Shown: positions 15,653 to 62,896, numbered from the stretch's first letter. The stretch is 64,000 nucleotides of DNA from an uncultured bacterium (GCA_964614945.1 CAZTNW010000001.1:30573-94572); one strand, 5' to 3'. Notes: generated from the sequence alone by a model not told the origin. A program made the numbers and translations.

Positions 15653-17001
15653 TAAGGATATATCCTCTCTAAGAGGCGGGGGAAAGGGATACTCTCCCTT
15701 ATATGCTCGAGGCCGCATATCCAGTATACTGTGCGCTCGATACCCAGGCCAAACCCGCTATGAGGTACGGAACCAAATCGTCTCAGGTCAAGATACCAGC
15801 GATAAGGTTCCTCGGGCAGGTGGTGTTCCTTCAGCTTTTTTTCCAAAAGAGCGAGGTCGTCGATTCTTTCCGACCCTCCGATAATTTCTCCAAATCCCTC
15901 GGGAGCTAATAGATCTGCGGAGAGCGTTACCTCCGGCCGGCGAGGATCGGGTTTCATGTAGAAAGCTTTGCAGGCCTGAGGGAAGTGAGTGACGAATACG
16001 GGTTTCTCGAATTGGGAACAGATGATTGTCTCGTGCGGCGAGCCAAAATCCTCCCCCCATTCGAGGGAGAGGTTGTTCTTCTTTAGCATCTCCAGAGATT
16101 GATCGTAGGTAATGCGCGGGAAGGGCGATTTAACCTTGGCGAGAGTGGACAAGTCACGTTTTAAGGTCTTGAGCTCCGGCTCCCTCTTAGTAAGAATTTC
16201 CTCGACGACGTAGGAGACTAACTCCTCCTGCAGTTGCAGATTGTCTTCGAAGGTATAGAAGGCCGCTTCTGGCTCCAGCATCCATAACTCCGTAAGGTGA
16301 CGACGAGTCCGTGACTTCTCTGCCCTGAAAGCCGGACCAAAGCAATAAACTCTGCCTAGGGCCATGCATGCAGCTTCATTATAAAGCTGACCACTCTGGG
16401 TCAAGTAGGCTTTTTCTCCAAAATAATCGAGCTGGAAAAGAGTGGTTGTTCCCTCGACAGCGGAGGGGGTCAGAATGGGAGCATCGACAAGGAGAAACCC
16501 CCTGGAATCCAGAAAATCTCTGCAGGCCTTGATGATCGTGGCTCGAATGCGCAAGATAGCAGCCTGGCGGCTGGATCGAAGCCAGAGATGACGGTGCTCC
16601 ATCAGGAAGGGGACGCCGTGCTCTTTCGGTGTGATCGGGTAGTCACTGGCAGAGCAGATGATTTTCAGTTCACTGAGATCCATTTCGACCCCTCCAGGCG
16701 CGCGCAGTTCGCGACGCACACGGCCTTTAACTTGCAGGGAGGATTCCTGCGTCAAATGTTTTACTTCCTCGAATATCTGCTCGGCCAGATTCCCTTTGTT
16801 GGCCACAACCTGAACAATCCCGGTGCCATCGCGGACCAGAACGAACTGTACGGAACCAGAAGACCTGGTGTTATAGACCCAGCCTTCAATAATGACTTCC
16901 TGATCGATGAATTGTTTGAGATCCTCAATGTACGCTTTTCTGATGTTCCTGACCTCCTTCTCGCCTAAGGTGACAGTTGCTCGCGATGCAAGGGACACCA
17001 C
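15652..17001 (-). CDS. asnS: class IIb aminoacyl-tRNA synthetase, asparaginyl-tRNA synthetase-like; archaeal-type AspRS is not excluded
   Basis: At 449 aa it has an N-terminal OB fold and a C-terminal motif-3 region GEIIGGSERI...WYLDLRRFGSVPHSGFGLGIER...IPFPR, which is closest to the AsnRS signature. Confidence 0.7.
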   Translation of the reverse strand: MVSLASRATVTLGEKEVRNIRKAYIEDLKQFIDQEVIIEGWVYNTRSSGSVQFVLVRDGTGIVQVVANKGNLAEQIFEEVKHLTQESSLQVKGRVRRELRAPGGVEMDLSELKIICSASDYPITPKEHGVPFLMEHRHLWLRSSRQAAILRIRATIIKACRDFLDSRGFLLVDAPILTPSAVEGTTTLFQLDYFGEKAYLTQSGQLYNEAACMALGRVYCFGPAFRAEKSRTRRHLTELWMLEPEAAFYTFEDNLQLQEELVSYVVEEILTKREPELKTLKRDLSTLAKVKSPFPRITYDQSLEMLKKNNLSLEWGEDFGSPHETIICSQFEKPVFVTHFPQACKAFYMKPDPRRPEVTLSADLLAPEGFGEIIGGSERIDDLALLEKKLKEHHLPEEPYRWYLDLRRFGSVPHSGFGLGIERTVYWICGLEHIRESIPFPRLLERIYP

Positions 17002-19004
17002 CTTGTTGGGCTGGTTCCCTCTAGAAAGACTTCTCTTTTAATCCTGTCTTCAGGACAAAAATCTGTAGCCAACAGACCTGAATCTTCACAGATGTAAACC
17101 GTTACCTTTTCTTCCCCCGGCGGAATCTCAAATTCATCGATTCTGATCAATTCCTTCGCCCTGCTAATGAAAGATCTCCAGATACTTGCCGGGAGATACA
17201 TGCCGATATTATAGCGCGTAGAAAAAGGAACGGAAGCAGAATCGTTGCCTGTAAAAACAACGCAGGAAATATGTGGCGTATAGCCGCAGAACCAGGCGTC
17301 TTTAAATAGGTCAGTGGTCCCGGTTTTTCCGGCCGAGGGTAATTCGGGAATGTAGGCACTGGTGGCTTTTATTACCGAGGTGAAATAATCGGTCATCTGG
17401 CAGGCTGTTTTAGCTGAGATGATTTGCTTCGCTTCGGGGGAGAATTCGTCCAATAAGGTTCCATCCCATTTTTCCACGCGCAGAAGCGGGCGAATATTGT
17501 ACCTGATTCCGTTCGTGGCGAGAATGGCATAAGCTTGAGCCATTTCGATGGGTTTCACTTCGTTTGAGCCTATGGCCAGGGAGGGATAGGGGAGAAGGGG
17601 CGTGGTTATTCCCATCTTTTGCGCATACTGGATTACCTTGTCTAGTCCGACCTTCATTGCTACCTTCAGCGCCGCAATGTTTGAAGAATGCACAAGTGCT
17701 TCACGCACTGACAATGGACCGTAATAACGCTTTCCGGCAAATGGATTCTCCCGGTACTCTGAAGGGGACCATCCTTCAATCTGGATCGGCTCAGAAACGA
17801 GGATATCTGTTGGGTGTAAAGTACCTTCCTCCAGGGCAGCAGCGTAGACAAAGATCTTGAAGGCCGACCCTGGTTGCCTCAGCGCTAAGGCGCGATTAAA
17901 TTCGGAGTCCTTGTAACTCGTTCCTCCGATCATTGCCAGCACATCCCCGTTTTGCGGGTCAATAGCGACAAGAGCTAATTGCGGCTGAGGCACTCCCCTG
18001 CCATCGACCAGTTCCACTGGCCAAACTTTCTCTCCCTGCCAGTACCCTATCGCCTCTCTGACTCCTTCCTCTGCCATTTTCTGCAGGCGCAGATCGAGCG
18101 AGGTATAAACACGTAGCCCTCCTTGGAACAACTCCTCTTCCCCGTATTTATCGATCAGGAGCTGTTTAATCCAATCGACGAAATATGGTGCCTGCCAGGA
18201 GGTCACGCTGGTATCTCGGAAGGTTAGCGAATAAGCCGCCGCCTGGGCGGCTTCTGCTTCGGAGATCATTCCATTCTTTTGCATCCGCTTCAGGACCTCC
18301 AATTGCCTGTTTTTCGACACCTGGAAGTTTGTATAAGGAGATAGCACGGAAGGAGCAGTTATTAAGCCTGCGAGAAAAGCGGATTCTGGCAGGTTGAGAT
18401 CCTGCACATGTTTGCCGAAATAAGTTCGGGCAGCTGCCTCTGCGCCGTAAGCCCCTTCTCCGAAGTAAATCGAATTAAGGTAAATTTGCAGAATCTCTTC
18501 TTTTGAGTATTGAGTTTCCATTCTCAGCGCCAGAAGAGCCTCCGTGATTTTTCTTTTCAGGGTGGACTCGTAGGAGAGGAAAAACTGGCGGACGAGCTGT
18601 TGAGTAATTGTCGATGCGCCCTCCACTAACATTCCGATCTGGATGTTGGCGGAGATCGCCCGCAGGATGGAAGGCAGGTCTATCCCATTGTGTCGCCAGA
18701 AATTTTTGTCTTCCGTGGCTACGATGGCATCGATGAGTGCCTGAGGGACCTGTGAGAGCGAGACGGGATACCTGAACTCATCTCCCCAGGCCTGGGCGAG
18801 GAGGTTACCGTTCCGATCGTATATTTCGCTCGTCAAAGCTAAATTAGGGCAGTTAATGGCTATCTGCGAGATCTCGGTGGGGTTAATGCCTAAAGCGTAT
18901 AGATAAGTCAGGGCCGCTGAAACAAAGCCTATGGAAAGGGCGAGGAAAATAATAGCCATTAGGGCCACAAAGCGCAGAAATATCTTAAAAATTCTTTTCC
19001 CCAT
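16965..19004 (-). CDS. mrcA: class A penicillin-binding protein (transglycosylase/transpeptidase)
   Basis: It has an N-terminal TM helix and a GT51 motif (EDKNFWRHNGID). The transpeptidase domain carries SAFK, SSN and KTGTT. Confidence 0.85.
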   Translation of the reverse strand: MGKRIFKIFLRFVALMAIIFLALSIGFVSAALTYLYALGINPTEISQIAINCPNLALTSEIYDRNGNLLAQAWGDEFRYPVSLSQVPQALIDAIVATEDKNFWRHNGIDLPSILRAISANIQIGMLVEGASTITQQLVRQFFLSYESTLKRKITEALLALRMETQYSKEEILQIYLNSIYFGEGAYGAEAAARTYFGKHVQDLNLPESAFLAGLITAPSVLSPYTNFQVSKNRQLEVLKRMQKNGMISEAEAAQAAAYSLTFRDTSVTSWQAPYFVDWIKQLLIDKYGEEELFQGGLRVYTSLDLRLQKMAEEGVREAIGYWQGEKVWPVELVDGRGVPQPQLALVAIDPQNGDVLAMIGGTSYKDSEFNRALALRQPGSAFKIFVYAAALEEGTLHPTDILVSEPIQIEGWSPSEYRENPFAGKRYYGPLSVREALVHSSNIAALKVAMKVGLDKVIQYAQKMGITTPLLPYPSLAIGSNEVKPIEMAQAYAILATNGIRYNIRPLLRVEKWDGTLLDEFSPEAKQIISAKTACQMTDYFTSVIKATSAYIPELPSAGKTGTTDLFKDAWFCGYTPHISCVVFTGNDSASVPFSTRYNIGMYLPASIWRSFISRAKELIRIDEFEIPPGEEKVTVYICEDSGLLATDFCPEDRIKREVFLEGTSPTRWCPLHREQLSP

Positions 19005-52324: not shown

Positions 52325-53683
52325 GTGGGATACGTAGAGACTGTATTCGAAGAGGTTCAGAGAAGAAATCAAAATGAGCCGGAATTTTTGCAAGCAGTGC
52401 GTGAAGTCTTTGAATCCGTCAAGCCTGTTTTTGAGAAGTACCCGCATTTTAGCGAGGCCCGTATTTTGGAGAGGATTGTTGAGCCAGAGAGAGTGGTGAT
52501 TTTCCGGGTTCCCTGGATAGACGACAGAGGGCAATTTCGTGTAAATCGTGGATATCGGATTGAAATGAACAGCGCGATTGGCCCCTACAAAGGCGGCGTT
52601 CGCTTTCATCCCTCAGTCAATTTGAGTATTCTTAAATTCCTTGCTTTTGAGCAGGTTTTCAAAAATAGCCTCACCACTCTTTCCATGGGCGGAGGCAAGG
52701 GCGGATCTGATTTTGATCCGAAAGGCAAGACCGAAAATGAGGTGATGAATTTTTGCCAGAGCTTCATGCTCGAATTGCAGCGGCACATCGGTCCAAACAC
52801 GGATGTGCCCGCAGGGGATATCGGGGTAGGCGCACGCGAGATCGGCTTTATGTTCGGGCAATACAAGCGCATCCGCAATGAATTCACCGGCGTGCTTACG
52901 GGAAAAGGCCTTAATTGGGGAGGTTCTCTTATCAGGCCCGAAGCCACCGGGTACGGCTGTGTATACTTTGCTTTCGAGATGTTGAAGACGACAGGCGAAG
53001 ATTTGCAGGGAAAGGTCTGTCTGGTATCCGGCAGCGGAAACGTCGCCCAGCATACCGTTCAGAAACTGCTGGACCTCGGCGCCAAGCCTGTGAGCCTCTC
53101 TGATTCGGATGGTTTCATCTACGACCCGGAAGGGATAGATCGCGAGAAGTTGGCCTGGGTGATGGAATTGAAGAATTTACGCCGGGGAAGGATTCGGGAG
53201 TACCAGGATCAGTTCAAGGGAGCAAGGTATACCGCTGCTGACACCGTTTTACCTTACAATCCTCTCTGGGCAATTCCCTGCGATTGTGCTTTCCCGAGCG
53301 CAACGCAGAATGAAATAAACGGGAAAGATGCGGAAAACCTTTTACAGGGTGGGTGCAAGTTAGTGGCAGAGGGCGCTAACATGCCTACCAATCCTGAAGG
53401 GGTGGAAAAGTTCCTTGCCGCCAGGATCCATTATGGTCCGGCCAAAGCAGCTAACGCCGGTGGAGTTGCCACCTCCGGCCTCGAGATGTCGCAAAACAGT
53501 ATGAGGCTTAACTGGCCGCGCGAAGAGGTGGATAGGCGCCTGCGCGATATCATGATCGCCATCCATAAGAACTGTTTTGAGACCGCGAAGCTCTTCGGGG
53601 TCCCGGGGAACTACGTGATTGGGGCGAATATTGCCGGCTTCCTCAAAGTAGCTAACGCCATGCTTGATCAAGGATTAGTGTAG
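52325..53683 (+). CDS. gdhA: glutamate dehydrogenase (NADP-type, GdhA-like)
   Basis: It has the GDH signature KGGVRFHP...MGGGKGGSDFDPKG. The GTG start follows AGGAGGGG. Confidence 0.9.
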   Translation: MGYVETVFEEVQRRNQNEPEFLQAVREVFESVKPVFEKYPHFSEARILERIVEPERVVIFRVPWIDDRGQFRVNRGYRIEMNSAIGPYKGGVRFHPSVNLSILKFLAFEQVFKNSLTTLSMGGGKGGSDFDPKGKTENEVMNFCQSFMLELQRHIGPNTDVPAGDIGVGAREIGFMFGQYKRIRNEFTGVLTGKGLNWGGSLIRPEATGYGCVYFAFEMLKTTGEDLQGKVCLVSGSGNVAQHTVQKLLDLGAKPVSLSDSDGFIYDPEGIDREKLAWVMELKNLRRGRIREYQDQFKGARYTAADTVLPYNPLWAIPCDCAFPSATQNEINGKDAENLLQGGCKLVAEGANMPTNPEGVEKFLAARIHYGPAKAANAGGVATSGLEMSQNSMRLNWPREEVDRRLRDIMIAIHKNCFETAKLFGVPGNYVIGANIAGFLKVANAMLDQGLV

Positions 53684-56002
53684 GGATAGCGGGCGGTTAA
53701 GGGCCTTCTCGAAAAAACCTACTGCCCGGTCGGTATCTCCGTCCATAATGACCGAGAGGTTGGAATTTTCTACGACCTTGGGAACATGGATAACCCTGAT
53801 CGTCGAGTCCGATTTATGCGCAGCGGCGGTAAAACGTCGCAGACTGTTATGGGCGTTACGGAAAAAACTTTCATTGAAGACAATTCCGCTATCGTCCGGA
53901 TAGAGGGGCAAATAGCGGATCCCTGCCTCCACCAAATCCTGGAAGAAATGCGTACCGAAGGATAACTCGGGCACGTAGTCTTTCTTCTTCCGAGCTACCT
54001 CGATAAGCATTGCCGTATTGTTGATGTCGCTGTAGCCAACCCGGACACCCAACTTTATATCCCTACTTCCCCAGCGCCCCGGACCGATCAAAATGAATTT
54101 CTGCCGGGGCAATCTGGCGTTCAGCTCGCTTATTGATCGTCCTACCTGGATTAAATCCGAGAGCGTGGAGAGCCGATCGTACTCTTCCGGATCCACATAG
54201 ACGATAAATTCGATCCCCTTTACCTGTGCCGTGTTCACATAGCGGTTAGCGGTGAATAGGATGTCTTTCCTCGGAATGTTTTCCGGAATCGAGACCCTTA
54301 TTGTGCCGCCGACCTGGCTTTGCGGCCGGCACTGTAGCAGGTAGAGCTTGTGGATATCCCCGTCACAAGCGAATTCGATATCCACCGGGAAGCCGAGGGT
54401 CTCCTCCAGAATACCAAATATATCTTTGATCATCGGGATAAAAGGGGCCCCGCCGGAAAGGAGACGAGCAAAGGTTACTACGGGTTTGCCTTCCGATAAC
54501 CTGATTACCGTGCCAGTTGGCGGGATAAGCTGGCCGTCGTGATAGATGGAGATGATCTGGGAAAGGGCGGGGAATTCAGAACCTACCCTCTCGATTACTC
54601 TCTCCACCGGAAGGGTCTCCAACCTTCTTGTCTCCAGATTGATGACATCCATGTTCTTCTGCGAGTACCAGAGGGTCTCCTCCGGGGTTACGTTTACTCT
54701 CAGGCCGGGCTGGCCGGGACTGACCAATACGGGATAATCATCTCCTACCCGGTCCACTGCCCGAGTGCCGAGTCCGGTAACCATGCGGATGATCCCATCC
54801 TTCTTCTTTATGCGGGGAGACCAGCGGAATTCGTTACAAGAGAAGGCCACTCCGGCGAAGGCTGGGAAAAAGTAGTTCCCTGCCCGCCGGCCGACTGCCT
54901 CCTGGATCATGATGGCCATCTCCTCGTTGAAATCCAATAGCCCTCGCTCTCTGCGGTATTCGATCGGGTCGGGGGAGAAAACGCTGGCGTAAATTTCCAA
55001 AATGGCATCAACTAAGGCGCTCAATCTTTCTTTTTTGCTCCCCTGATTGGCGAGAAAGAGGCTTTTGTATTTTCCGGCGAAAGATGAGCCGAAGGTATCC
55101 TCGAGCAGGCTGGACGATCGGACGATCAACGGTCTCTCGCCGAAGTCATCCAGCACGAGGTTCAGGCCGGCGATTATACCGGGCGATAGCTGCGAGTTCT
55201 TGAAGATTTGCTCCAAATAGGGATATTCCTGTCGGATCTCCCCCGGATCTCGGTATTTGATGATCGGCATTTCCTCTAAGGCGTTAAAATGCAGGAAGTC
55301 CATGATCGCATCCGAGGCCAGATACCATGTCTTCGGGACCGTCAGATTCCGCAAGGAGATCGTTTCTTTCTTGGTCAGCAGAATTTTTTCCGCCCGAAAT
55401 AAACCCGCTGCTTTTCCTCCGAGCTTTCCGTTTCCCGAACCGGGGCCGATCGTCTGAGCGAGGATGGTGGCAAAATCCAGGACGGAGACATACTTCTTCG
55501 TCACGTTCAGGTAATCCAGGTCATCGCTGAAGAAACGCCGAATCAGGGCTACCTTGGTGCTGATGGCTTCCTCGGGAGAAAGGTTTTTTTGTGCATCCGG
55601 CATCTGCGCGAAGCGGCGCACGGCGTTGGAAATTTCCGCGAGAGAGACATCTCTTTTTTCCGTGGCCATCGTGAGGAATCGAGCCTGTTCATTTTTGAGC
55701 CAGATCCCCACCATCGTGTTGATTATTTCAAGGGATAGCTCTTTGGCCGCAATCTGAAAGACCTCTTCGATGAATCGATCAAGTACCAACGGGTCTAACC
55801 GCTGAATCGGTTCGTTCTCGCCGACAGGGTGTAAGAGTTGATCAGTTGTCGAACTGAGGCGTCTCATGAGGTCCTGAGCGGAGGAGATATTGCACTTGAA
55901 GAGGTAATTCATCATCTTGCGCCCAATCCGATCGAGGAGATTCGGGTTGGTGTCGCGCAAGAGATCGACAATCACCTTCCACTCAGGTTTCGGCTTACTC
56001 AA
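53675..56002 (-). CDS. PEP-synthase/PPDK-like ATP-grasp (PPDK_N) domain protein with a C-terminal swivel-like domain; lacks the PEP/pyruvate TIM-barrel domain
   Basis: At 775 aa it has GKAAGL and the motif IVRSSSLLEDTFGSSFAGKYKSLFL (compare VAVRSSATxEDLPxASFAGQQ of PEP synthase), plus ...DIEFACDGDIHKLYLLQCRPQ. The C-terminal domain carries GPGRWGS...GTHFFQDL. It overlaps the downstream paralogue by 4 nt. Confidence 0.65.
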   Translation of the reverse strand: MSKPKPEWKVIVDLLRDTNPNLLDRIGRKMMNYLFKCNISSAQDLMRRLSSTTDQLLHPVGENEPIQRLDPLVLDRFIEEVFQIAAKELSLEIINTMVGIWLKNEQARFLTMATEKRDVSLAEISNAVRRFAQMPDAQKNLSPEEAISTKVALIRRFFSDDLDYLNVTKKYVSVLDFATILAQTIGPGSGNGKLGGKAAGLFRAEKILLTKKETISLRNLTVPKTWYLASDAIMDFLHFNALEEMPIIKYRDPGEIRQEYPYLEQIFKNSQLSPGIIAGLNLVLDDFGERPLIVRSSSLLEDTFGSSFAGKYKSLFLANQGSKKERLSALVDAILEIYASVFSPDPIEYRRERGLLDFNEEMAIMIQEAVGRRAGNYFFPAFAGVAFSCNEFRWSPRIKKKDGIIRMVTGLGTRAVDRVGDDYPVLVSPGQPGLRVNVTPEETLWYSQKNMDVINLETRRLETLPVERVIERVGSEFPALSQIISIYHDGQLIPPTGTVIRLSEGKPVVTFARLLSGGAPFIPMIKDIFGILEETLGFPVDIEFACDGDIHKLYLLQCRPQSQVGGTIRVSIPENIPRKDILFTANRYVNTAQVKGIEFIVYVDPEEYDRLSTLSDLIQVGRSISELNARLPRQKFILIGPGRWGSRDIKLGVRVGYSDINNTAMLIEVARKKKDYVPELSFGTHFFQDLVEAGIRYLPLYPDDSGIVFNESFFRNAHNSLRRFTAAAHKSDSTIRVIHVPKVVENSNLSVIMDGDTDRAVGFFEKALNRPLSLH

Positions 56003-58971
56003 GCTCCTGCTCCTTCTGATTTATCAGACCTCAGGACGATCCCCCGTCCGGTACGTCCATCCATCTTGACGATGAAGCCCTCAGAAGATTTTACCACCCT
56101 TAAGTGGTCCGTTTCCTTGAGAGAGGGTTGGGTTTCTAACCAATTCCAATCTAAACCGGATTTTTCATTGTGCGCGCTGACAGTGAAATAGCCGATGCGC
56201 AAAGAAGTCAGGTTCTGGAAAAAGTGCGAACCTTGAGAAGGATCTGGATGCATCCCGGGTAAATCAACTTCCACGATTACTCTGGCCTGACTGATCTGGT
56301 TCCATTTAACCGGAATGCCCAGCCAGGGATCGGAAGAACCCCAGCGCCCCGGACCAATAAGGATAGAGCTGTCGCCTTCTTTTTTCAGCCAATCATTGAG
56401 CAGGCCGATTTCTTGAGCGATTTGGGCGTTATCCTTCGGGTGGAAACTCTGCAGCTTTACGTAGATCAGGTGGTGTATGGGCGGCAGAACTCCGTTCCCC
56501 AATACATGGTCGCTGAAAATGAGAGCGTCTTTCACCGTCTCGGTTAGATCCATACTGACGAGCTCATCGCCGACGACCAGAGGACGGATCTGAAGAAAGC
56601 CGAAATTCACCGGAAACGACTTTTGGTCGTTCCATGAGATGGCAAATTCAATCTCTACAGGATTCCCCATCGCCTGCTTTGCCGTATCCAGCAGATTTAA
56701 AAGAAGGGGAGAGAGGGGGAACGCCTCGCGCTTGAGAATGGGAGCAAAGGTTAAAATCCTCGGACCAGGGGCGGCGATTCCGTCAAGGACTCTTTCATCT
56801 TCCCGGTTATAGGTGGAGGCGATCCAGTCCAGAACCCCGTCCAACTCCGCTTCCTTGAGGTCCAGTTTCACCAGGTATTGATCCTCCTCTGAGAAAGCGG
56901 AGGAGTAACCGGGATGCATATCTATGGCGTAATATTCCCGCTGGGAGTATTTCAGCGTACTGGCAGAGGAGTTGAATTGAGGCAAGATCTGTGGGTAACG
57001 GGGAGAAAACCTCAGGGATACTCCGCCCTCCACGATTGTTTTCCCCAATCCCAGGGCTATATAAGCTACTCCATCTTCTGGTGTGGCGTGACCGAACGGG
57101 TAAAAATTGTATGAACGTGCCACGCCGGAGAGGTGGGGGTAAAATCGCCATCCATGTCTTTCGCCCACAACCTCCTGCACGATGACGGCCATTTTCTCCT
57201 CCTCCGGCAGATGGTGGGTCGATTCTATATAAGTCCGGGCCCGGTGAAAAAAAGTAGAGGCATAGACCAGCTTGATAGCGTTGGTCAGACTGAGGAAACG
57301 CGCATCGGCATCCGGTTCATTATTGGGAATCATTTTGGTGATATAGATGCCGGCGAAGGGCTGATAAAGAGCGTCCTCAAGCAGGCTGGAGGAGCGGACA
57401 GCGAGAGGGAAACGCTCCTCCAGGATGAAATGACGTAGATCCCCGACCAGGGTAGGGGAGAGTTCCGCACCCAGGAATGCACCAGCTATTCTGATGTCGG
57501 ATTTCTCCTCCAAAGCAAACTTAAGAAGTCTGTTTCTCTGAAGAAAATCCTCGAAAATCTCAGTGGAAAGGATTAGTGCTCTCGGTATGCCCACTTCTAC
57601 TTCGGGAAATGTGGTGGGGGAGAAGTTGGAGGCAAGGATCTTGTCCATGAAAGCCAATCCGCGAGCTTTTCCTCCCATCGAGCCCTCTCCAATTCTGCAG
57701 AAATGCCAGGTCTCTATGGGAACGCGGCGGGAAAAAGGGACAACGTTTCCCCTCTGCCTCTTTTGCCTCCAGCTATCGAGCACTTCCTTGATTTCGCGGC
57801 GAATATCTCCTTTTATTTCTCGGGAGGAGAGTTCCTTGGCCAGGCCCAATTCCGTGCGAGCCCAAAGCCAGCGAGTGATATCACCGTTCCGGAACTGGCG
57901 CTCAATAACGCCGGGGGGCAGACTCTCGATAATCGAACTCATGACCTCCAAATTGGGCACCCGGGCTATCTCATGCTGGTCATGATCACGGAATACGAGG
58001 TCCCCGAAGCCGAAGAACTCAAGAAGAAGCAGACGGAAGTCCTCGATCAAGGTTGGGGAGTGTTTATGCAAAAAGCCGGCATTCAGACTGCTTGCGTAGG
58101 CTCTTGTCCTCAGCTCGCTCGATTGCAGCAGGATGGGGAGATGTGGAAGCTCCTCCCTGGCTGAACGAGCAAACTCCAGTCCAGCTAAATTATCCACCTC
58201 TTTGCCCCTGGAAAAGCTGACGTCTGTTATCAGGCCGAGTAAGTGAGATTTAAATTTCTGAAAGATCTGCAGCCCCTCTTCGTAGTCCGTTGCCAGGTGT
58301 ACGCGAGGCCTGCCTCTTTGCCTCAGCAGTCTCTCAGTGAAACTCAGATTCTCCTTAAGAAGCCCATGGGTTAATTTCAAAAGCTCGTCAAAAAGAAAGG
58401 TAAGATAGGCGGAATAGAACTGCACCGAATCCTCGATGACTAGGAGATTGGGCACGCCTATCAGCTCCGTGTCATAGGCAGCGTTTCTTCGGTCCTCGAT
58501 GAACTGGATGATGCCGACAAGGATTTTGCCGTCTCCCTGCCAGAGAAAGATTTTATCGACCGACTTTCCGTCATTTGCCTCAAGAAGGCGCTCCAGCTCA
58601 GGAGTCTGAAAAGCCAGAATTACTACGGGAAGGCCCGGAGAAATTTGCTTTGCTTGCGACCCGAAGGCGAAAGGGTTTATCTCGCCGACCCTCTGCATCG
58701 CTATAACGAGATCGAATCCTTCCCTCTTTATTTCCTCAAGAGCCGTTTCTGCATCCGGCGTCCTGTGGATAACCGGCACATAGCCCAGATTTTTCTCCTG
58801 ATAAGCCTGGTTTAAAAGATCGATCAGGCGACCATCCTCTTCCAGAATAAAGGCGTCATACAGGCTGGCCACAAGGAGAACCTTGCGCACCTTGAAGGGC
58901 ATTAACCTCTGTAGCAGGATTGTTTGGTCATCGGAAAACAACCATTCCCTGTCTGAGTAATTCTTCTCCAT
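55999..58971 (-). CDS. response-regulator receiver fused to a PEP-synthase-like ATP-grasp (PPDK_N) and swivel-like domain
   Basis: At 990 aa it has an N-terminal pseudo-receiver (KVLLVAS...FDLVIAMQ, lacking the acidic pocket and the phospho-Asp). A canonical receiver follows (LLVIEDS...LITDVSF...PILLQSS...FLHKHSP). Then come PPDK_N motifs (GGKARGLAFM, AVRSSSLLEDALYQPFAGIYI, FGFLQIRP) and a C-terminal GPGRWGS...GSHFFQNL. Confidence 0.65.
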   Translation of the reverse strand: MEKNYSDREWLFSDDQTILLQRLMPFKVRKVLLVASLYDAFILEEDGRLIDLLNQAYQEKNLGYVPVIHRTPDAETALEEIKREGFDLVIAMQRVGEINPFAFGSQAKQISPGLPVVILAFQTPELERLLEANDGKSVDKIFLWQGDGKILVGIIQFIEDRRNAAYDTELIGVPNLLVIEDSVQFYSAYLTFLFDELLKLTHGLLKENLSFTERLLRQRGRPRVHLATDYEEGLQIFQKFKSHLLGLITDVSFSRGKEVDNLAGLEFARSAREELPHLPILLQSSELRTRAYASSLNAGFLHKHSPTLIEDFRLLLLEFFGFGDLVFRDHDQHEIARVPNLEVMSSIIESLPPGVIERQFRNGDITRWLWARTELGLAKELSSREIKGDIRREIKEVLDSWRQKRQRGNVVPFSRRVPIETWHFCRIGEGSMGGKARGLAFMDKILASNFSPTTFPEVEVGIPRALILSTEIFEDFLQRNRLLKFALEEKSDIRIAGAFLGAELSPTLVGDLRHFILEERFPLAVRSSSLLEDALYQPFAGIYITKMIPNNEPDADARFLSLTNAIKLVYASTFFHRARTYIESTHHLPEEEKMAVIVQEVVGERHGWRFYPHLSGVARSYNFYPFGHATPEDGVAYIALGLGKTIVEGGVSLRFSPRYPQILPQFNSSASTLKYSQREYYAIDMHPGYSSAFSEEDQYLVKLDLKEAELDGVLDWIASTYNREDERVLDGIAAPGPRILTFAPILKREAFPLSPLLLNLLDTAKQAMGNPVEIEFAISWNDQKSFPVNFGFLQIRPLVVGDELVSMDLTETVKDALIFSDHVLGNGVLPPIHHLIYVKLQSFHPKDNAQIAQEIGLLNDWLKKEGDSSILIGPGRWGSSDPWLGIPVKWNQISQARVIVEVDLPGMHPDPSQGSHFFQNLTSLRIGYFTVSAHNEKSGLDWNWLETQPSLKETDHLRVVKSSEGFIVKMDGRTGRGIVLRSDKSEGAGA

Positions 58972-59052: not shown

Positions 59053-60339
59053 TTATATCCAACCCCTCATCTTACAGGCTTCGGCGACTCGCTGAATGGC
59101 GATCATGTAAGCAGCATCACGCACATAGACTTTCTCTTCACGGGCCAGGGCGGAAACCTTCAAGTAGGCGTCAGTCATTTTTGTATCCAGTTTAGCCAGA
59201 GCCTCATCCTTTGTCCAGAAGTAGTTCATGTTGCACTGGACTTGTTCGAAATAACTACACGTCACTCCGCCGGCATTAGCGAGAAAATCCGGGACCACGA
59301 AAATGCCCTTCTCCTTGAGGATTTTGTCCGCTTCGGGAGTGGTGGGACCATTGGCACCCTCCACCATCAGGCGGACGGAATTGGAAATGCGTGCAGCTGT
59401 ATCTCCGGTCACCTGATTCTCTAAGGCCGCAGGAACCAGAATCTCCGCCTCCTGCTCGATCCAGGCCTCTCCTTCGAGGATTTCATAGCCGCATTCCGAG
59501 GCCTTCTTCTTTTGAATGCCGCCGAAAGGGTCTGTAAAAGAGCACAGCTCTTCCAAATTTATCCCGTTCTTCTTGCGGAAAGTATAGGATCTCTGCTCCT
59601 CTTGATCCCAGCAGGATACACAGATGGGTGTTCCACCGTACTCGCTGTATAATTTCACCGCGTGTTGAGCGACATTGCCGAACCCCTGGAAGGCTGCCCT
59701 GGTTTTTTTAATATCGATTCCCAGCTCACGCAAGGCTTCACGCATGACATAAACAACGCCATAGCCCGTGGCCTCCTTCCTGCCCAGTGATCCCCCTACG
59801 CCAAGAGGCTTACCGGTGATGACTCCCGGATAATGACCCCTAAAGATATTCTCGTACTCATCCAGCATCCACACCATATGTTTACCGGAAGTCATTACGT
59901 CGGGAGCAGGAACATCCTGGATAGGGCCTATATTGGCGGCAATTTGGCGGATCCATCCGCGGCACAGGCCTTCTTGTTCTCTCTCGGAAAGATGGTGCGG
60001 ATCACAGATAATTCCGCCCTTCCCCCCTCCAAGAGGAATATCCACCACTGAACATTTCCAGGTCATCCACATGGCTAATGCTCGTACCGTATCGACGGTC
60101 TCCTGCGGGTGAAAGCGTATCCCGCCCTTGCATGGGCCGCGGGCGTCGTTATGCTGGACGCGGAATCCCTGGAAGATTTTGAAGCCCCCATCGTCCATAC
60201 GAACCGGGATTAGAAAATGGAATTCTCTCATTGGGTTTCGTAAAAGATCGCGGGTTGCTTGGTCCAACCCCAGCTTCTCGGCTACGCCATCAAATTGTTG
60301 CTGGGCCATTTTGAAGGCGTTGAAAGACTTGTCAGCCAT
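59053..60339 (-). CDS. gdh: Glu/Leu/Phe/Val dehydrogenase family protein (glutamate dehydrogenase, second copy)
   Basis: It has KGGIRFHP...PLGGGKGG and a Rossmann fold. The preferred start is MADKSF, which follows AAGGAG. Confidence 0.85.
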   Translation of the reverse strand: MADKSFNAFKMAQQQFDGVAEKLGLDQATRDLLRNPMREFHFLIPVRMDDGGFKIFQGFRVQHNDARGPCKGGIRFHPQETVDTVRALAMWMTWKCSVVDIPLGGGKGGIICDPHHLSEREQEGLCRGWIRQIAANIGPIQDVPAPDVMTSGKHMVWMLDEYENIFRGHYPGVITGKPLGVGGSLGRKEATGYGVVYVMREALRELGIDIKKTRAAFQGFGNVAQHAVKLYSEYGGTPICVSCWDQEEQRSYTFRKKNGINLEELCSFTDPFGGIQKKKASECGYEILEGEAWIEQEAEILVPAALENQVTGDTAARISNSVRLMVEGANGPTTPEADKILKEKGIFVVPDFLANAGGVTCSYFEQVQCNMNYFWTKDEALAKLDTKMTDAYLKVSALAREEKVYVRDAAYMIAIQRVAEACKMRGWI

Positions 60340-60491
60340 AACTATCTCCTTCGCCGAACTTGATGTGTTTTTAGAACAAAAAGAGGAATGGAATACTTCC
60401 ATTGCCCCTTACTTAATTGTATGATATCCGAAGGCATTGTCAAGGAATTCTCCTACTCTGCTTTACTTGGTTTTGCGCTCCTCTGCCTGGG

Positions 60492-61762: not shown

Positions 61763-62404
61763 TTAAAGTCTTTGCGCCAGGAGCCTTGCCCAGGCATGAC
61801 GGTGTGGTGAAGAGTAGCGGTAGTCCAAAGAATCGCCTTCCGCATAGTAGATTACTTTCAAATCGGAAAAATAAGAGCGTAGTTCACCGGGGGAAAAGAA
61901 GTAGAGATGGCCACCATCACGGGTAAGAAAATGCCCTATACCCTGTGCTTTCAATCGCATCTGCGCGGCAAAGTGACCAGGATCTTGCTCGGTGTAGGCA
62001 GCACAGGCAAGAAGACCGCCGGATTTAAGTCCCGAAGAAATCGAGTTAGCCAGTTCAGCAATTTTCTCAGGAGGGAAAAAGGTGAGGGACCAGAAAGAGC
62101 ATATCAGCTCGTAAAAATTCTCAGAGATGGGGAATTGAGCCAAATCCAGACGATAAGTTTTAATCTTTAAGCTTTCCTCCCTCGCCCTTTCCTTGAGGCG
62201 ATTGATCGCTAAACGGGAAGCATCGACTGCAGTCATCTCAAGACCCAAGCGGGCGAGAAAGATTGTCTCCCTCCCCTCTCCCATACCTAAATCCAGGCCG
62301 ATCCCCCGCCGAGGAAGCAGGAATTGATGGGATAGAAGGAGATCGTCGGGCCGTTCTCTCCATTGGTCTGTTCTCTCTTCATATAGGTTTTGCCTGGAGT
62401 TCAT
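61763..62404 (-). CDS. class I SAM-dependent methyltransferase (TehB-like)
   Basis: It has the motif GLDLGMGEGRETIFLARLG and a Rossmann MTase fold, at 213 aa. Confidence 0.75.
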   Translation of the reverse strand: MNSRQNLYEERTDQWRERPDDLLLSHQFLLPRRGIGLDLGMGEGRETIFLARLGLEMTAVDASRLAINRLKERAREESLKIKTYRLDLAQFPISENFYELICSFWSLTFFPPEKIAELANSISSGLKSGGLLACAAYTEQDPGHFAAQMRLKAQGIGHFLTRDGGHLYFFSPGELRSYFSDLKVIYYAEGDSLDYRYSSPHRHAWARLLAQRL

Positions 62405-62452
62405 GGCATAATTATTATAATTCCCTTGGTAAGGAAATTCAGGAGGTGCGAG

Positions 62453-62896
62453 GTGTTTAAAAAGATCTTGGTTCCTGTTGATGGGTCAGAGGAAGCGCAA
62501 AAGGCTGTGGAAACAGCCAGGGAGCTCGCTAAATGCGCCCAAAGCGAGGTCACTCTTCTCTATGTCCTGGCTCCCCTTACTATGGTGGCTACCGCCGCTC
62601 CTGGTGAGGAAAGGATTCTTTCTGCAATCCCCGAATTGCTGGTCTTCCGCCAAAATGAGGGAAATGCCATCCTGAAAGAAATGGTCAGCAAGTTTGCGGA
62701 TTCTGGCATCGAACCGAAAAGGAAGATGATAGAGGGCCATCCAGCTCGATCTATTCTCTCTCTGGCCAAAGAGGAAAATTTCGAGCTCATCATAATGGGC
62801 TCTCGCGGCCTTTCACGCATTGCAGGCTTTCTTCTGGGATCGATCAGTGATGCGGTTGTCCATCATGCTCACTGCCCGGTTTTGATCGTGAGATAA
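62453..62896 (+). CDS. universal stress protein (UspA family)
   Basis: It has ILVPVDGSEEAQKA and the C-terminal motif GSRGLSRIAGFLLGS. The GTG at 62453 follows AGGAGGTG. Confidence 0.8.
   Translation: MFKKILVPVDGSEEAQKAVETARELAKCAQSEVTLLYVLAPLTMVATAAPGEERILSAIPELLVFRQNEGNAILKEMVSKFADSGIEPKRKMIEGHPARSILSLAKEENFELIIMGSRGLSRIAGFLLGSISDAVVHHAHCPVLIVR

Follow-up and report, generated by a model that had tools for sequence, protein, structure and literature searches.

PPDK-type ATP-grasp proteins that end in a conserved histidine-bearing domain without detectable relation to the canonical swivel domain, encoded next to glutamate dehydrogenase

Two adjacent genes of an uncultured bacterium encode paralogous ATP-grasp proteins of the PEP-synthase/PPDK type, called here A and B, both of which end in a homologous domain of about 190 amino acids (domain X) that carries the motifs LIGPGRWGS and G[ST]HFFQ[DN]L. 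X is a real and ancient domain without counterpart in Pfam, NCBIfam or the PDB. Since it has no database match, while the ATP-grasp motifs of A and B are intact and no swivel gene is found nearby, X is best read as a non-canonical phosphohistidine or catalytic domain. Positions are those of the window, the whole 64-kb stretch of DNA that was analysed.

Results

A and B carry an intact ATP-grasp domain and additional N-terminal domains

Protein A (775 aa; 53675..56002, minus strand) and protein B (990 aa; 55999..58971, minus strand) align over about 600 columns in a whole-protein BLASTP comparison (E 2e-40). Each contains a PPDK_N ATP-grasp domain (PF01326), at residues 193-568 of A (54299..55426, minus strand; E 4.1e-53) and 431-805 of B (56557..57681, minus strand; E 1.5e-31), with scores of 181 and 110 bits, respectively, for a cut-off of 27. 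The nucleotide-site motifs GGK, RSS..ED, E-x-E/IE-A and Q-x-R-P are conserved in both proteins, in keeping with PF01326 membership. When aligned with E. coli PpsA, the ATP-grasp domain of A keeps GGK, RSSxxxED, FAG, IE-A and QxRP, and K27, R127, E133, D134, Q193, E320, Q334 and R336 are invariant in A and B. Foldseek matched both ATP-grasp domains to RPH, PEPS and PPDK, with E 1e-13 to 1e-7 for A. In searches of the whole proteins against Pfam, PPDK_N alone was detected; neither PF00391 nor PEP-utilizers_C was found, and the canonical layout of ATP-grasp, PF00391 and acceptor-binding domain is absent from A and B. The NCBIfam models for PEPS, RPH and PigC matched only the ATP-grasp region, far under their cut-offs.

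The initial annotation had envisaged complete two-domain dikinases, should the histidine of X be a phospho-carrier; A and B are more complex than this. A adds an N-terminal all-helical domain (residues 1-185; 55448..56002, minus strand), seen in the full-length AlphaFold model, which has no Pfam match at E<=10; a helical N-terminal domain of this type was found in 70 of 80 related loci. In B, the additional N-terminal region is about 425 aa long and includes a receiver-like domain (residues 42-123; 58603..58848, minus strand), which scored 31.9 bits with PF00072 when the N-terminal fragment was searched and 28.8 bits, under the cut-off, when the whole protein was used. Met92 of B aligns, weakly, at the position of CheY Asp57, and the acceptor aspartate is probably missing from this domain.

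X contains a single invariant histidine

X occupies residues 578-775 of A (53678..54271, minus strand) and 814-990 of B (56002..56532, minus strand), which were recognised by an X profile with E-values of 1.4e-89 (hmmsearch) and 7e-38, respectively. A BLASTP comparison of the two C-terminal domains (27% identity, E 2e-17) bore out that the paralogues share this domain, as initially annotated, and the resemblance is far beyond chance. Neither X domain matched any Pfam family at E<=10 in hmmscan. The AlphaFold model of X from A (pLDDT 93, pTM 0.90) is an alpha/beta domain, in which the Gly-rich loop GPGRWGS (residues 640-646; 54065..54085, minus strand) comes directly after strand 636-641; the corresponding loop of B comprises residues 873-879 (56335..56355, minus strand). 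The histidine is His685 in A (codon 53948..53950, minus strand), in G683-T-H-F-F-Q-D-L690 (53933-53956), and His916 in B (codon 56224..56226, minus strand), in G914-S-H-F-F-Q-N-L921 (56209-56232); the numbering given beforehand for both residues was exact by codon positions. In the AlphaFold models a helix (685-692 in A) starts with this histidine, after a strand and a lower-confidence loop. The phospho-carrier histidines of PPDK and HPr are likewise found at a helix N-terminus after a strand and a loop.

In an alignment of 111 X sequences, G-P-G-R-W-G, D, E and S-x-G-x-H-F-F are invariant; beside the histidine and the Gly-rich loop, the invariant residues include R, D, E, S and N. The histidine is kept in 111/111 aligned sequences, in 115 of 117 representatives of less than 50% identity and in all 101 locus-encoded copies, whatever their architectural type (L 59/59, S 23/23, B 10/10, A 9/9), and G-R-W-G is invariant in all four types. 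No other histidine downstream of the ATP-grasp domain is invariant.

PF00391 membership of X is not supported

X had been proposed to be a divergent PEP-utilizer mobile domain, an idea to be given up if comparisons revealed no relationship to the swivel and if the histidine varied among orthologues. No relationship was detected; the histidine, on the contrary, is conserved, as the above counts show. An extremely diverged but true swivel homologue, with the same swivelling mechanism, would fit the order of elements in X (strand, strand, loop, [TS]-H at a helix N-terminus, strand, terminal beta-hairpin) and its location directly after the ATP-grasp domain, which is that of the swivel in PEPS. 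In addition, the terminal hairpin 'MDG(x)TG/D' (in B, VKMDGRTGRGIV) recalls, partly by eye, the swivel-ending 'DG-x-x-G-x-V', and Foldseek alignments of the full-length model with PPDK cover 600-720 columns, past the ATP-grasp domain. However, the alignment to PEPS 2ols ends at 397 columns, which corresponds to the ATP-grasp domain, and PF00391 membership of X found no support in any of the searches made. First, PF00391 gave no match on X at E<=10. Second, hhalign comparison of X (117 sequences, Neff 4.6) with the swivel (124 sequences, Neff 4.4) gave a probability of 0.1% and an E-value of 0.54, local, low-mact and global modes being used with shallow and then deeper profiles. Third, reciprocal HMM searches between X and the swivel were empty at E<=10. 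Finally, the Foldseek check that the initial annotation had called for turned out negative, with no swivel among the 50 matches listed for the X model against the PDB (best E 0.16). As for the catalytic histidine of the swivel, which lies in G-G-x-T-[SC]-H-[AT]-[AS]-I at a helix N-terminus, X has an invariant histidine at such a place, preceded by [TS], but in the motif S-x-G-[TS]-H-F-F-[QH]-[DN] and not in the family signature. In control searches, E. coli PpsA matched PF00391 at 1.1e-29, and a swivel profile made from four sequences recovered EI, PEPS, RPH, the pyruvate kinase C-terminal domain and PPDK in the PDB.

The only matches of the X profile among PDB sequences were to the ATP-grasp tail included in the alignment, and a BFVD fold search with X gave nothing significant (best E 0.025), the scattered weak SbcD/metallophosphatase matches not being trusted. 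A profile search detected no swivel-like ORF in the window or in the 80 related loci. In conclusion, we consider it highly unlikely that X is a swivel domain, and these results favour the alternative of the initial annotation, namely that the domain is new.

X relatives are widespread and linked to glutamate dehydrogenase genes

A word-indexed search gave 1151 database matches for X. A profile in which some 60 positions came from the ATP-grasp tail matched 530, 1729 and 2433 clusters (50% identity) at E<=1e-30, 1e-10 and 1e-3, respectively. At least 600 species genomes of GTDB, from many bacterial and archaeal phyla, contain X, which in the architectures examined is always directly preceded by PPDK_N. 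The S type consists of ATP-grasp and X only; in most relatives an active-looking nucleotidyltransferase (NTase) domain is fused after X, and a metallophosphoesterase gene adjoins many of them. Current annotations give X proteins no other name than 'PEP/pyruvate-binding domain-containing protein' or, wrongly, 'pyruvate, water dikinase'. Full-text literature searches yielded no description of the X domain or of its glutamate dehydrogenase (GDH) linkage, only census mentions of REC-PPDK fusions, and PADLOC defence models gave no match. Two candidates were rejected: an X+NTase protein of about 330 aa on a long contig (P0100), considered as a standalone protein, is located 425 nt after a truncated PPDK_N ORF and is probably a broken gene call; and the 464-aa genes flanking a B-like gene in one locus (L001), considered as conserved partners, encode lineage-specific TPR-like repeat proteins.

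It is extremely improbable that X is itself a degenerate nucleotidyltransferase fold of the Pol-beta type that arose by duplication of the NTase domain located behind it in relatives. G645-S646 of A, followed after 11 residues by S-D-I-N and preceded by a helix and a strand, superficially resembles hG[GS]x9-13Dh[DE]h, but the acidic pair is not conserved (at the place of S-D-I-N, B reads N-Q-I-S, and conservation of the D column is below 90%) and the X model lacks the helix expected after G-S. This identity was rejected on the results of hhalign of X against the NTase tails of the family (probability 2.7%), of Pfam (no NTase match on X, PF01909 and PF18765 being tested) and of Foldseek (no NTase among the matches listed, though the PDB has many).

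A GDH2-type gene lies immediately upstream of the cluster, on the same strand, in 48 of the 59 informative loci. The same is true in this window, where GDH2 (59053..60402, minus strand; ELFV_dehydrog E 4.8e-69, and E 1.8e-121 with GDH chain 1euz) appears to head an operon GDH2-B-A, in which 81 nt separate it from B. A second GDH gene, the GdhA-like GDH1 (52325..53683, plus strand), is convergent with A, and their 3' ends overlap by 9 nt; 14 instances of GDH1-type genes were found near the cluster in related loci. In 1996, Baggio and Morrison reportedly observed that GdhA of B. thetaiotaomicron needs one or more genes downstream of gdhA for its activity. The idea that these belong to the X family found no support: if gdhA is BT1970, as we take it to be, its neighbours are a malic enzyme gene (BT1969) and a catalase gene (BT1971).

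X-bearing paralogues are usually found together, as S-L or B-A pairs in about half of the loci, which together with the tight GDH synteny would suit a non-catalytic docking or oligomerisation module that, for example, brings the paralogues together or binds the GDH hexamer, with a structural role for the conserved residues. However, GDH-L operons have one X protein as often as a pair (19 vs 18), and near-absolute conservation of G, R, D, E, S, H and N in many phyla and four architectures would be unusual for an interface; we give such a role for X little credence.

Discussion

We propose, tentatively and with somewhat less than even confidence, that A and B are swivel-less PEP-synthase/PPDK ATP-grasp enzymes in which X, replacing PF00391, takes the phosphoryl group at its histidine. 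We infer phosphohistidine formation, a direction of transfer and an acceptor as follows. A compact alpha/beta domain would have replaced the canonical swivel in both proteins; the ATP-grasp domain would transfer a phosphoryl (or pyrophosphoryl) group from ATP to His685 of A and His916 of B, and the phosphoryl group would then move on from X to an acceptor, which the conserved operon suggests might be GDH or something in the GDH reaction. In the predicted structure, the G-R-W-G-S loop, the invariant Glu that ends the next strand and S-x-G-[TS]-H are on adjacent loops, and they probably form together one phosphate-handling site. The aspartate-less receiver-like N-terminus of B and the helical N-terminus of A may be regulatory or target-binding modules. 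To our knowledge, every characterised PPDK_N enzyme works via phosphohistidine (PPDK, PEPS, RPH, GWD), and sequence and model make the X histidine a plausible phospho-carrier. Nevertheless, no known phosphohistidine domain is detectably related to X in sequence or fold, and the invariant polar set of X would be just as compatible with a hydrolase or ligand-binding site. Moreover, since most relatives have an active-looking nucleotidyltransferase after X, X could serve that domain instead.

X might also be an acceptor-binding or catalytic domain that binds the substrate or a nucleotide/phosphate, its histidine acting as a general base or metal ligand and the ATP-grasp domain transferring phosphate directly, without phosphohistidine. 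We hold this to be unlikely, although several observations agree with it. The invariant R, D, E, S, H and N and the Gly-rich loop are located in post-strand, pre-helix loops, in a Rossmann-like manner; the weak Foldseek matches of X are all to nucleotide-binding alpha/beta folds or metallophosphatases, although none is significant; and the S type has no other candidate substrate domain. The pTM of the full-length AlphaFold model (0.81) suggests in addition that the domains are packed in a fixed way, X being held rigidly against the ATP-grasp domain, and do not swivel freely, which also tells against our main proposal. However, we know of no characterised PPDK_N enzyme that dispenses with phosphohistidine, and a lone invariant histidine that follows [TS] and starts a helix would more typically be a phospho-carrier.

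The near-obligate GDH operon, the NTase fusions and the metallophosphoesterase neighbours suggest an unrecognised control or chemistry at the main carbon/nitrogen branch point in uncultured anaerobes. X proteins could be at the centre of a hitherto undescribed system of covalent modification dedicated to GDH, which would phosphorylate and/or nucleotidylylate GDH or a GDH-bound ligand, a scenario that we regard as distinctly unlikely. It would comprise a swivel-less ATP-grasp/phosphohistidine 'writer', in most cases with a fused MNT-type nucleotidyltransferase, and in many cases a metallophosphoesterase 'eraser'. If true, amino-acid catabolism would be switched in this way in anaerobic peptide fermenters of more than 10 bacterial and archaeal phyla, and GDH would be under a control resembling that of glutamine synthetase by GlnE, with a new kind of phosphohistidine domain.

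As far as we know, one conserved phosphohistidine domain, the swivel, is needed by all characterised PPDK-type ATP-grasp enzymes. The present family, very large and phylogenetically broad, keeps the ATP-grasp domain and has, instead of the swivel, X with its own invariant histidine. If this histidine is a phospho-carrier, X would be a second, independent answer to the shuttle problem of dikinases; otherwise, these would be the first PPDK_N enzymes to work without one.

Comparison with known systems

B shares the REC-PPDK response-regulator architecture listed in two-component censuses. REC-PPDK fusions and aspartate-less receivers are noted there (PMC5847659, PMC4395418), one census reporting that PPDK outputs are enriched for aspartate-less receivers (PMC4395418); the census entries concerned list the architecture only and leave the C-terminal domain and function undescribed.

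PEPS and PPDK (PPDK_N, PF00391 and PEP-utilizers_C) resemble A and B in their homologous ATP-grasp domain with conserved motifs, directly followed by a histidine-bearing domain. In contrast, A and B have neither PF00391 nor the PEP/pyruvate TIM-barrel, their X domain showed no relation to the swivel in any of the searches, they carry extra N-terminal domains, and their operon partner is GDH. The best matches for the ATP-grasp domains of A and B are RPH and PigC/RedH-type enzymes (5hv3, E 1.3e-13 with Foldseek; PigC, E 1e-9 with NCBIfam). RPH has a canonical C-terminal swivel (E 1.7e-11 with the control profile) and a large substrate domain, whereas A and B have neither.

The split dikinases (phenylphosphate synthase, HpeHI / acetovanillone kinase AcvAB), to which the ATP-grasp subunit HpeI belongs (9goj, a strong structural match with E 1.3e-11), illustrate that the ATP-grasp module can combine with differing partners. 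Split dikinases still use a PF00391 histidine subunit, whereas no gene for such a subunit was found near A and B or in the 80 related loci. In succinyl-CoA synthetase and ATP-citrate lyase, the histidine phosphorylated by the ATP-grasp domain lies on a loop, at the N-terminal end of a helix, within a Rossmann-like domain. Although X has no sequence or Foldseek similarity to these enzymes and the ATP-grasp subfamily differs, the local layout of X is comparable to their phosphohistidine loop, a functional analogy and not a membership.

A conserved C-terminal domain shared by proteins A and B

The neighbouring paralogous genes A (window 53675-56002, minus strand; 775 aa, TTG start) and B (55999-58971, minus strand; 990 aa) are arranged so that the TTG start of A overlaps the TGA stop of B (TTGA, 55999-56002), which suggests translational coupling. 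One database entry for the same protein as A starts nine codons later and has 766 aa. Both products carry a PPDK_N ATP-grasp domain encoded on the minus strand (A residues 193-568, Pfam E 4e-53; B residues 431-805, Pfam E 1.5e-31), in which the nucleotide-site motifs of Escherichia coli PpsA are kept (GGK27, R127-S-S..E133-D134, F-A-G, Q193, E320 and Q334-x-R336-P). Beyond PPDK_N and a marginal receiver domain in B, Pfam identified no further domain in A or B.

The final 190-200 or so residues of A and B, called X here, are homologous (27% identity, E 2e-17 for the domains alone). The initial annotation, which described paralogues with a common C-terminal domain, was correct on this point and its motifs were found as exact strings: GPGRWGS at A 640-646 and B 873-879, and G[ST]HFFQ[DN]L, which holds His685 in A and His916 in B. 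Pfam searches with X of A and X of B returned no family even at E<=10, NCBIfam matches on whole A and B were confined to the ATP-grasp part and far below the cut-offs, and PDB sequence searches with the protein or the X profile returned ATP-grasp regions only. Using X of A as query, 1151 proteins were returned; a search of 1.84 billion cluster representatives, with a profile that took in about 60 positions of the ATP-grasp tail, matched 530, 1729 and 2433 clusters at E<=1e-30, 1e-10 and 1e-3 respectively. Scanning GTDB at one genome per species gave at least 600 matching stretches. Matches were observed in MAGs of Acidobacteriota, Aminicenantes, Ignavibacteriota, Calditrichota, Planctomycetota, Bacillota, Zixibacteria, Krumholzibacteriia, Thermoplasmatota and others; related loci come from MAGs of Ignavibacteria, Melioribacteraceae, Calditrichota, Caldisericota and similar groups, and the nearest named homologue from a Coprothermobacterota MAG. 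Full-length relatives of A carry only the names 'PEP/pyruvate-binding domain-containing protein' or 'pyruvate, water dikinase', and full-text literature searches found no description of the domain or of the glutamate dehydrogenase (GDH) linkage presented below. By these sequence comparisons X is a real, ancient and unannotated domain, undescribed in the databases and literature searched.

The invariant set of X in a 111-sequence alignment is N, G-P-G-R-W-G, D, G, E, P, S-x-G-x-H-F-F and L. The His, proposed initially as a possible phospho-carrier, is strongly conserved: it is kept in 115 of 117 diverse domains, mainly from representatives below 50% identity, and in 59/59, 23/23, 10/10 and 9/9 X domains of the four architectural types found in 80 genomic loci. 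A functional role of this His is still a viable idea.

X is not recognised as a canonical swivel domain

X had also been read as a possible divergent PEP-utilizer swivel domain (PF00391), the canonical phosphohistidine domain of PPDK, PEPS, EI and RPH. This reading was not supported by Pfam, which detects PF00391 in E. coli PpsA at 1e-29, nor by hhalign, hmmsearch or Foldseek. An alignment of 117 diverse X sequences was compared with a swivel alignment made of E. coli PpsA, PtsI, PtsP and FryA and 120 PF00391-bearing fragments; hhalign, in local, permissive and global modes, gave a probability of 0.1% (E 0.54), and hmmsearch run in both directions (the X HMM on swivel sequences and the swivel HMM on X sequences) gave nothing at E<=10. 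An AlphaFold model of X built from the 111-sequence alignment (pLDDT 93, pTM 0.90) had no Foldseek match at E<=0.001 among 350,542 PDB chains. The best matches (E 0.16, TM 0.23) were Rossmann-like or TIM folds, no PPDK, EI, PEPS or RPH swivel was present among the 50 matches listed, and a BFVD fold search with the same model likewise gave nothing significant. As a control, a four-sequence swivel profile recovered every solved swivel class in the PDB: EI, PEPS, RPH (1.7e-11), the pyruvate kinase C-terminal domain (6e-13) and PPDK (about 1e-5). The swivel family is normally easy to recognise, and we consider it improbable that X is a true diverged swivel. PF00391-like ORFs were absent from the 64-kb window and from the 80 related loci.

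Structures of RPH, HpeI, PEPS and PPDK matched the full-length AlphaFold model of A (pLDDT 84.7, pTM 0.81) with E values of 1e-13 to 1e-7; the RPH and PEPS alignments span only about 400 columns, consistent with a match to the modelled ATP-grasp part alone.

Predicted structure of X

In the AlphaFold model, X of A begins with three short strands (residues 581-585, 592-597 and 599-603) and a long helix (614-630), followed by a strand (636-641) that leads directly into the Gly-rich loop G-R-W-G-S-R-D. A further strand (665-669) has the invariant Glu at its end and is followed by a loop of lower confidence (670-684) and a helix (685-692) that has the invariant His as its first residue; a strand (696-700), a helical insert and three C-terminal strands complete the domain. 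Loops after strands, together with the beginning of the His helix, hold the invariant polar residues. In parallel-sheet alpha/beta folds, phosphate and nucleotide sites are usually found at such positions, and from the order of secondary structure elements, rather than coordinates, we infer that the invariant polar residues of X would occupy the positions usual for such a site. In model and alignment, the His at the helix N-terminus lies beside the Gly-rich loop and invariant Arg, Asp, Glu and Ser. To our knowledge, all PPDK_N enzymes characterised so far transfer phosphate by way of a histidine; a role of X in acceptor binding or catalysis that involves no phosphohistidine appears rather unlikely to us.

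Architectures of X proteins

X proteins have four architectures, in two lineages. The L type (about 1060 aa) consists of a helical N-terminus, ATP-grasp, X and an MNT-type nucleotidyltransferase (NTase; PF01909, G-S...D-I-D) that looks active from its sequence; the A type has the same layout without the NTase. The S type (about 600 aa) has ATP-grasp and X only, and the B type adds a receiver-like N-terminal extension to it.

The all-helical N-terminus of A (residues 1-185, window 55448-56002, minus strand), helical in the AlphaFold model and with no Pfam match at E<=10, is kept in A- and L-type relatives (70 of 80 loci) and may be a target- or ligand-binding module. In 71 of 80 loci, close relatives of A continue for about 140 aa past X as an MNT-type NTase (PF01909/PF18765) with intact G-S...D-I-D (for example P0038, P0061, P0244; L014-L089); A of the window ends right after X, and no NTase was found anywhere in the window. 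X itself resembles a Pol-beta nucleotidyltransferase superficially (G-S...S-D-I-N). The acidic residues are not conserved and hhalign against the family's NTase tails gave 2.7%, so that a degenerate NTase is highly improbable.

The receiver-like domain of B (residues 42-123, window 58603-58848, minus strand) is a marginal Pfam match. In a weak alignment with CheY, Met92 lies opposite the acceptor Asp57 and the acidic pocket is replaced by VLLVASLYD; judging from these residues, the phospho-acceptor aspartate appears to be absent. The Met agrees with published censuses (PMC5847659, PMC4395418), which list REC-PPDK fusions and, in the second, report an enrichment of aspartate-less receivers on PPDK outputs.

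Representatives of 1500-1650 aa with two PPDK_N matches were also observed. A single 1637-aa ORF in locus L052 (6104-11014) comprises an S-like and an L-like unit, and P0241-P0243 and P0260 each have profile matches in two stretches; by sequence these look like S-L fusions, which, if true, would support the two paralogues working together. That X is itself a docking or oligomerisation module has little probability in our view.

X genes are associated with glutamate dehydrogenase

B is preceded, at a distance of 81 nt and in the same orientation, by a GDH gene (GDH2; 59053-60402, minus strand), giving the order GDH-B-A. The GDH2 product matches the solved GDH chain 1euz at E 1.8e-121 and is, by this similarity, a bona fide enzyme. 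A second, GdhA-like gene (GDH1; 52325-53683, plus strand) is convergent with A and shares 9 nt with it at the 3' ends; such a gene is often near the X cluster. Upstream of the GDH operon are genes for a universal stress protein (62390-62893, plus strand) and a SAM-dependent methyltransferase (61766-62404, minus strand).

Eighty X-bearing loci were taken from GTDB genomes and annotated by local HMM and phmmer searches. A GDH gene was present in 60 of them. Among the 59 loci whose upstream DNA was long enough, 48, from many phyla, had a GDH of the same subtype as the next gene upstream in the same orientation; all such upstream genes (51/51) were of the GDH2 type, with a median stop-to-stop ORF gap of 31 nt to the X gene. 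The association was repeated in three further loci of other genomes. Common operons were GDH-L (19 loci) and GDH-S-L (18 loci), the GDH-B-A form of the window being a minority (about 6 loci). In conclusion, the X family has a strong, previously unreported association with glutamate dehydrogenase.

In 1996 Baggio and Morrison reportedly found that genes downstream of Bacteroides thetaiotaomicron gdhA affect GDH activity. The neighbours of BT1970, which we take to be this gdhA, encode malic enzyme and catalase and, provided that the assignment is right, give no support for a link to the X family.

A metallophosphoesterase of about 300 aa (DLHGH...GGD...GNDD...HGHIHE) is encoded just downstream of the last X-protein gene, usually convergently, in 28 of 67 loci with enough downstream DNA (just 3' of an L-type gene in L014, L021, L022, L028 and L033, for example); its gene is absent from the window. 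In some loci it stands behind a third, B-type gene.

Other neighbours were observed in single loci or lineages. In L009, a methyltransferase gene separates the A-like gene from GDH, and an NfnAB/GltD-like pair (16019-18332; DHODB_Fe-S_bind, then Fer4_20 + Pyr_redox_2) follows the B-like gene, an indication of NAD(P)H/ferredoxin metabolism in the neighbourhood of the GDH cluster. In one lineage, two paralogous 464-aa TPR-like repeat proteins (L001 1944-3338 and 6440-7834) bracket the B-like gene; they show no conservation in the remaining loci and do not occur in the window.

Possible function and relation to known systems

We tentatively favour the reading that X is a non-canonical phosphohistidine or phosphoryl-transfer domain that functionally replaces the swivel, because characterised PPDK_N enzymes all use a His, the ATP-grasp looks competent, no canonical His domain is found in cis or nearby, and the next domain has one invariant His. 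In this predicted chemistry, GDH itself or a metabolite linked to GDH would serve as the acceptor. A bolder reading, which we regard as unlikely, is a writer/eraser system that would act on GDH much as GlnE acts on glutamine synthetase; it is suggested by the combination of a fused NTase, a phosphoesterase neighbour, the pseudo-receiver and a GDH gene that is translationally close. The family is best filed among the PPDK_N dikinase-like enzymes, as a new variant.
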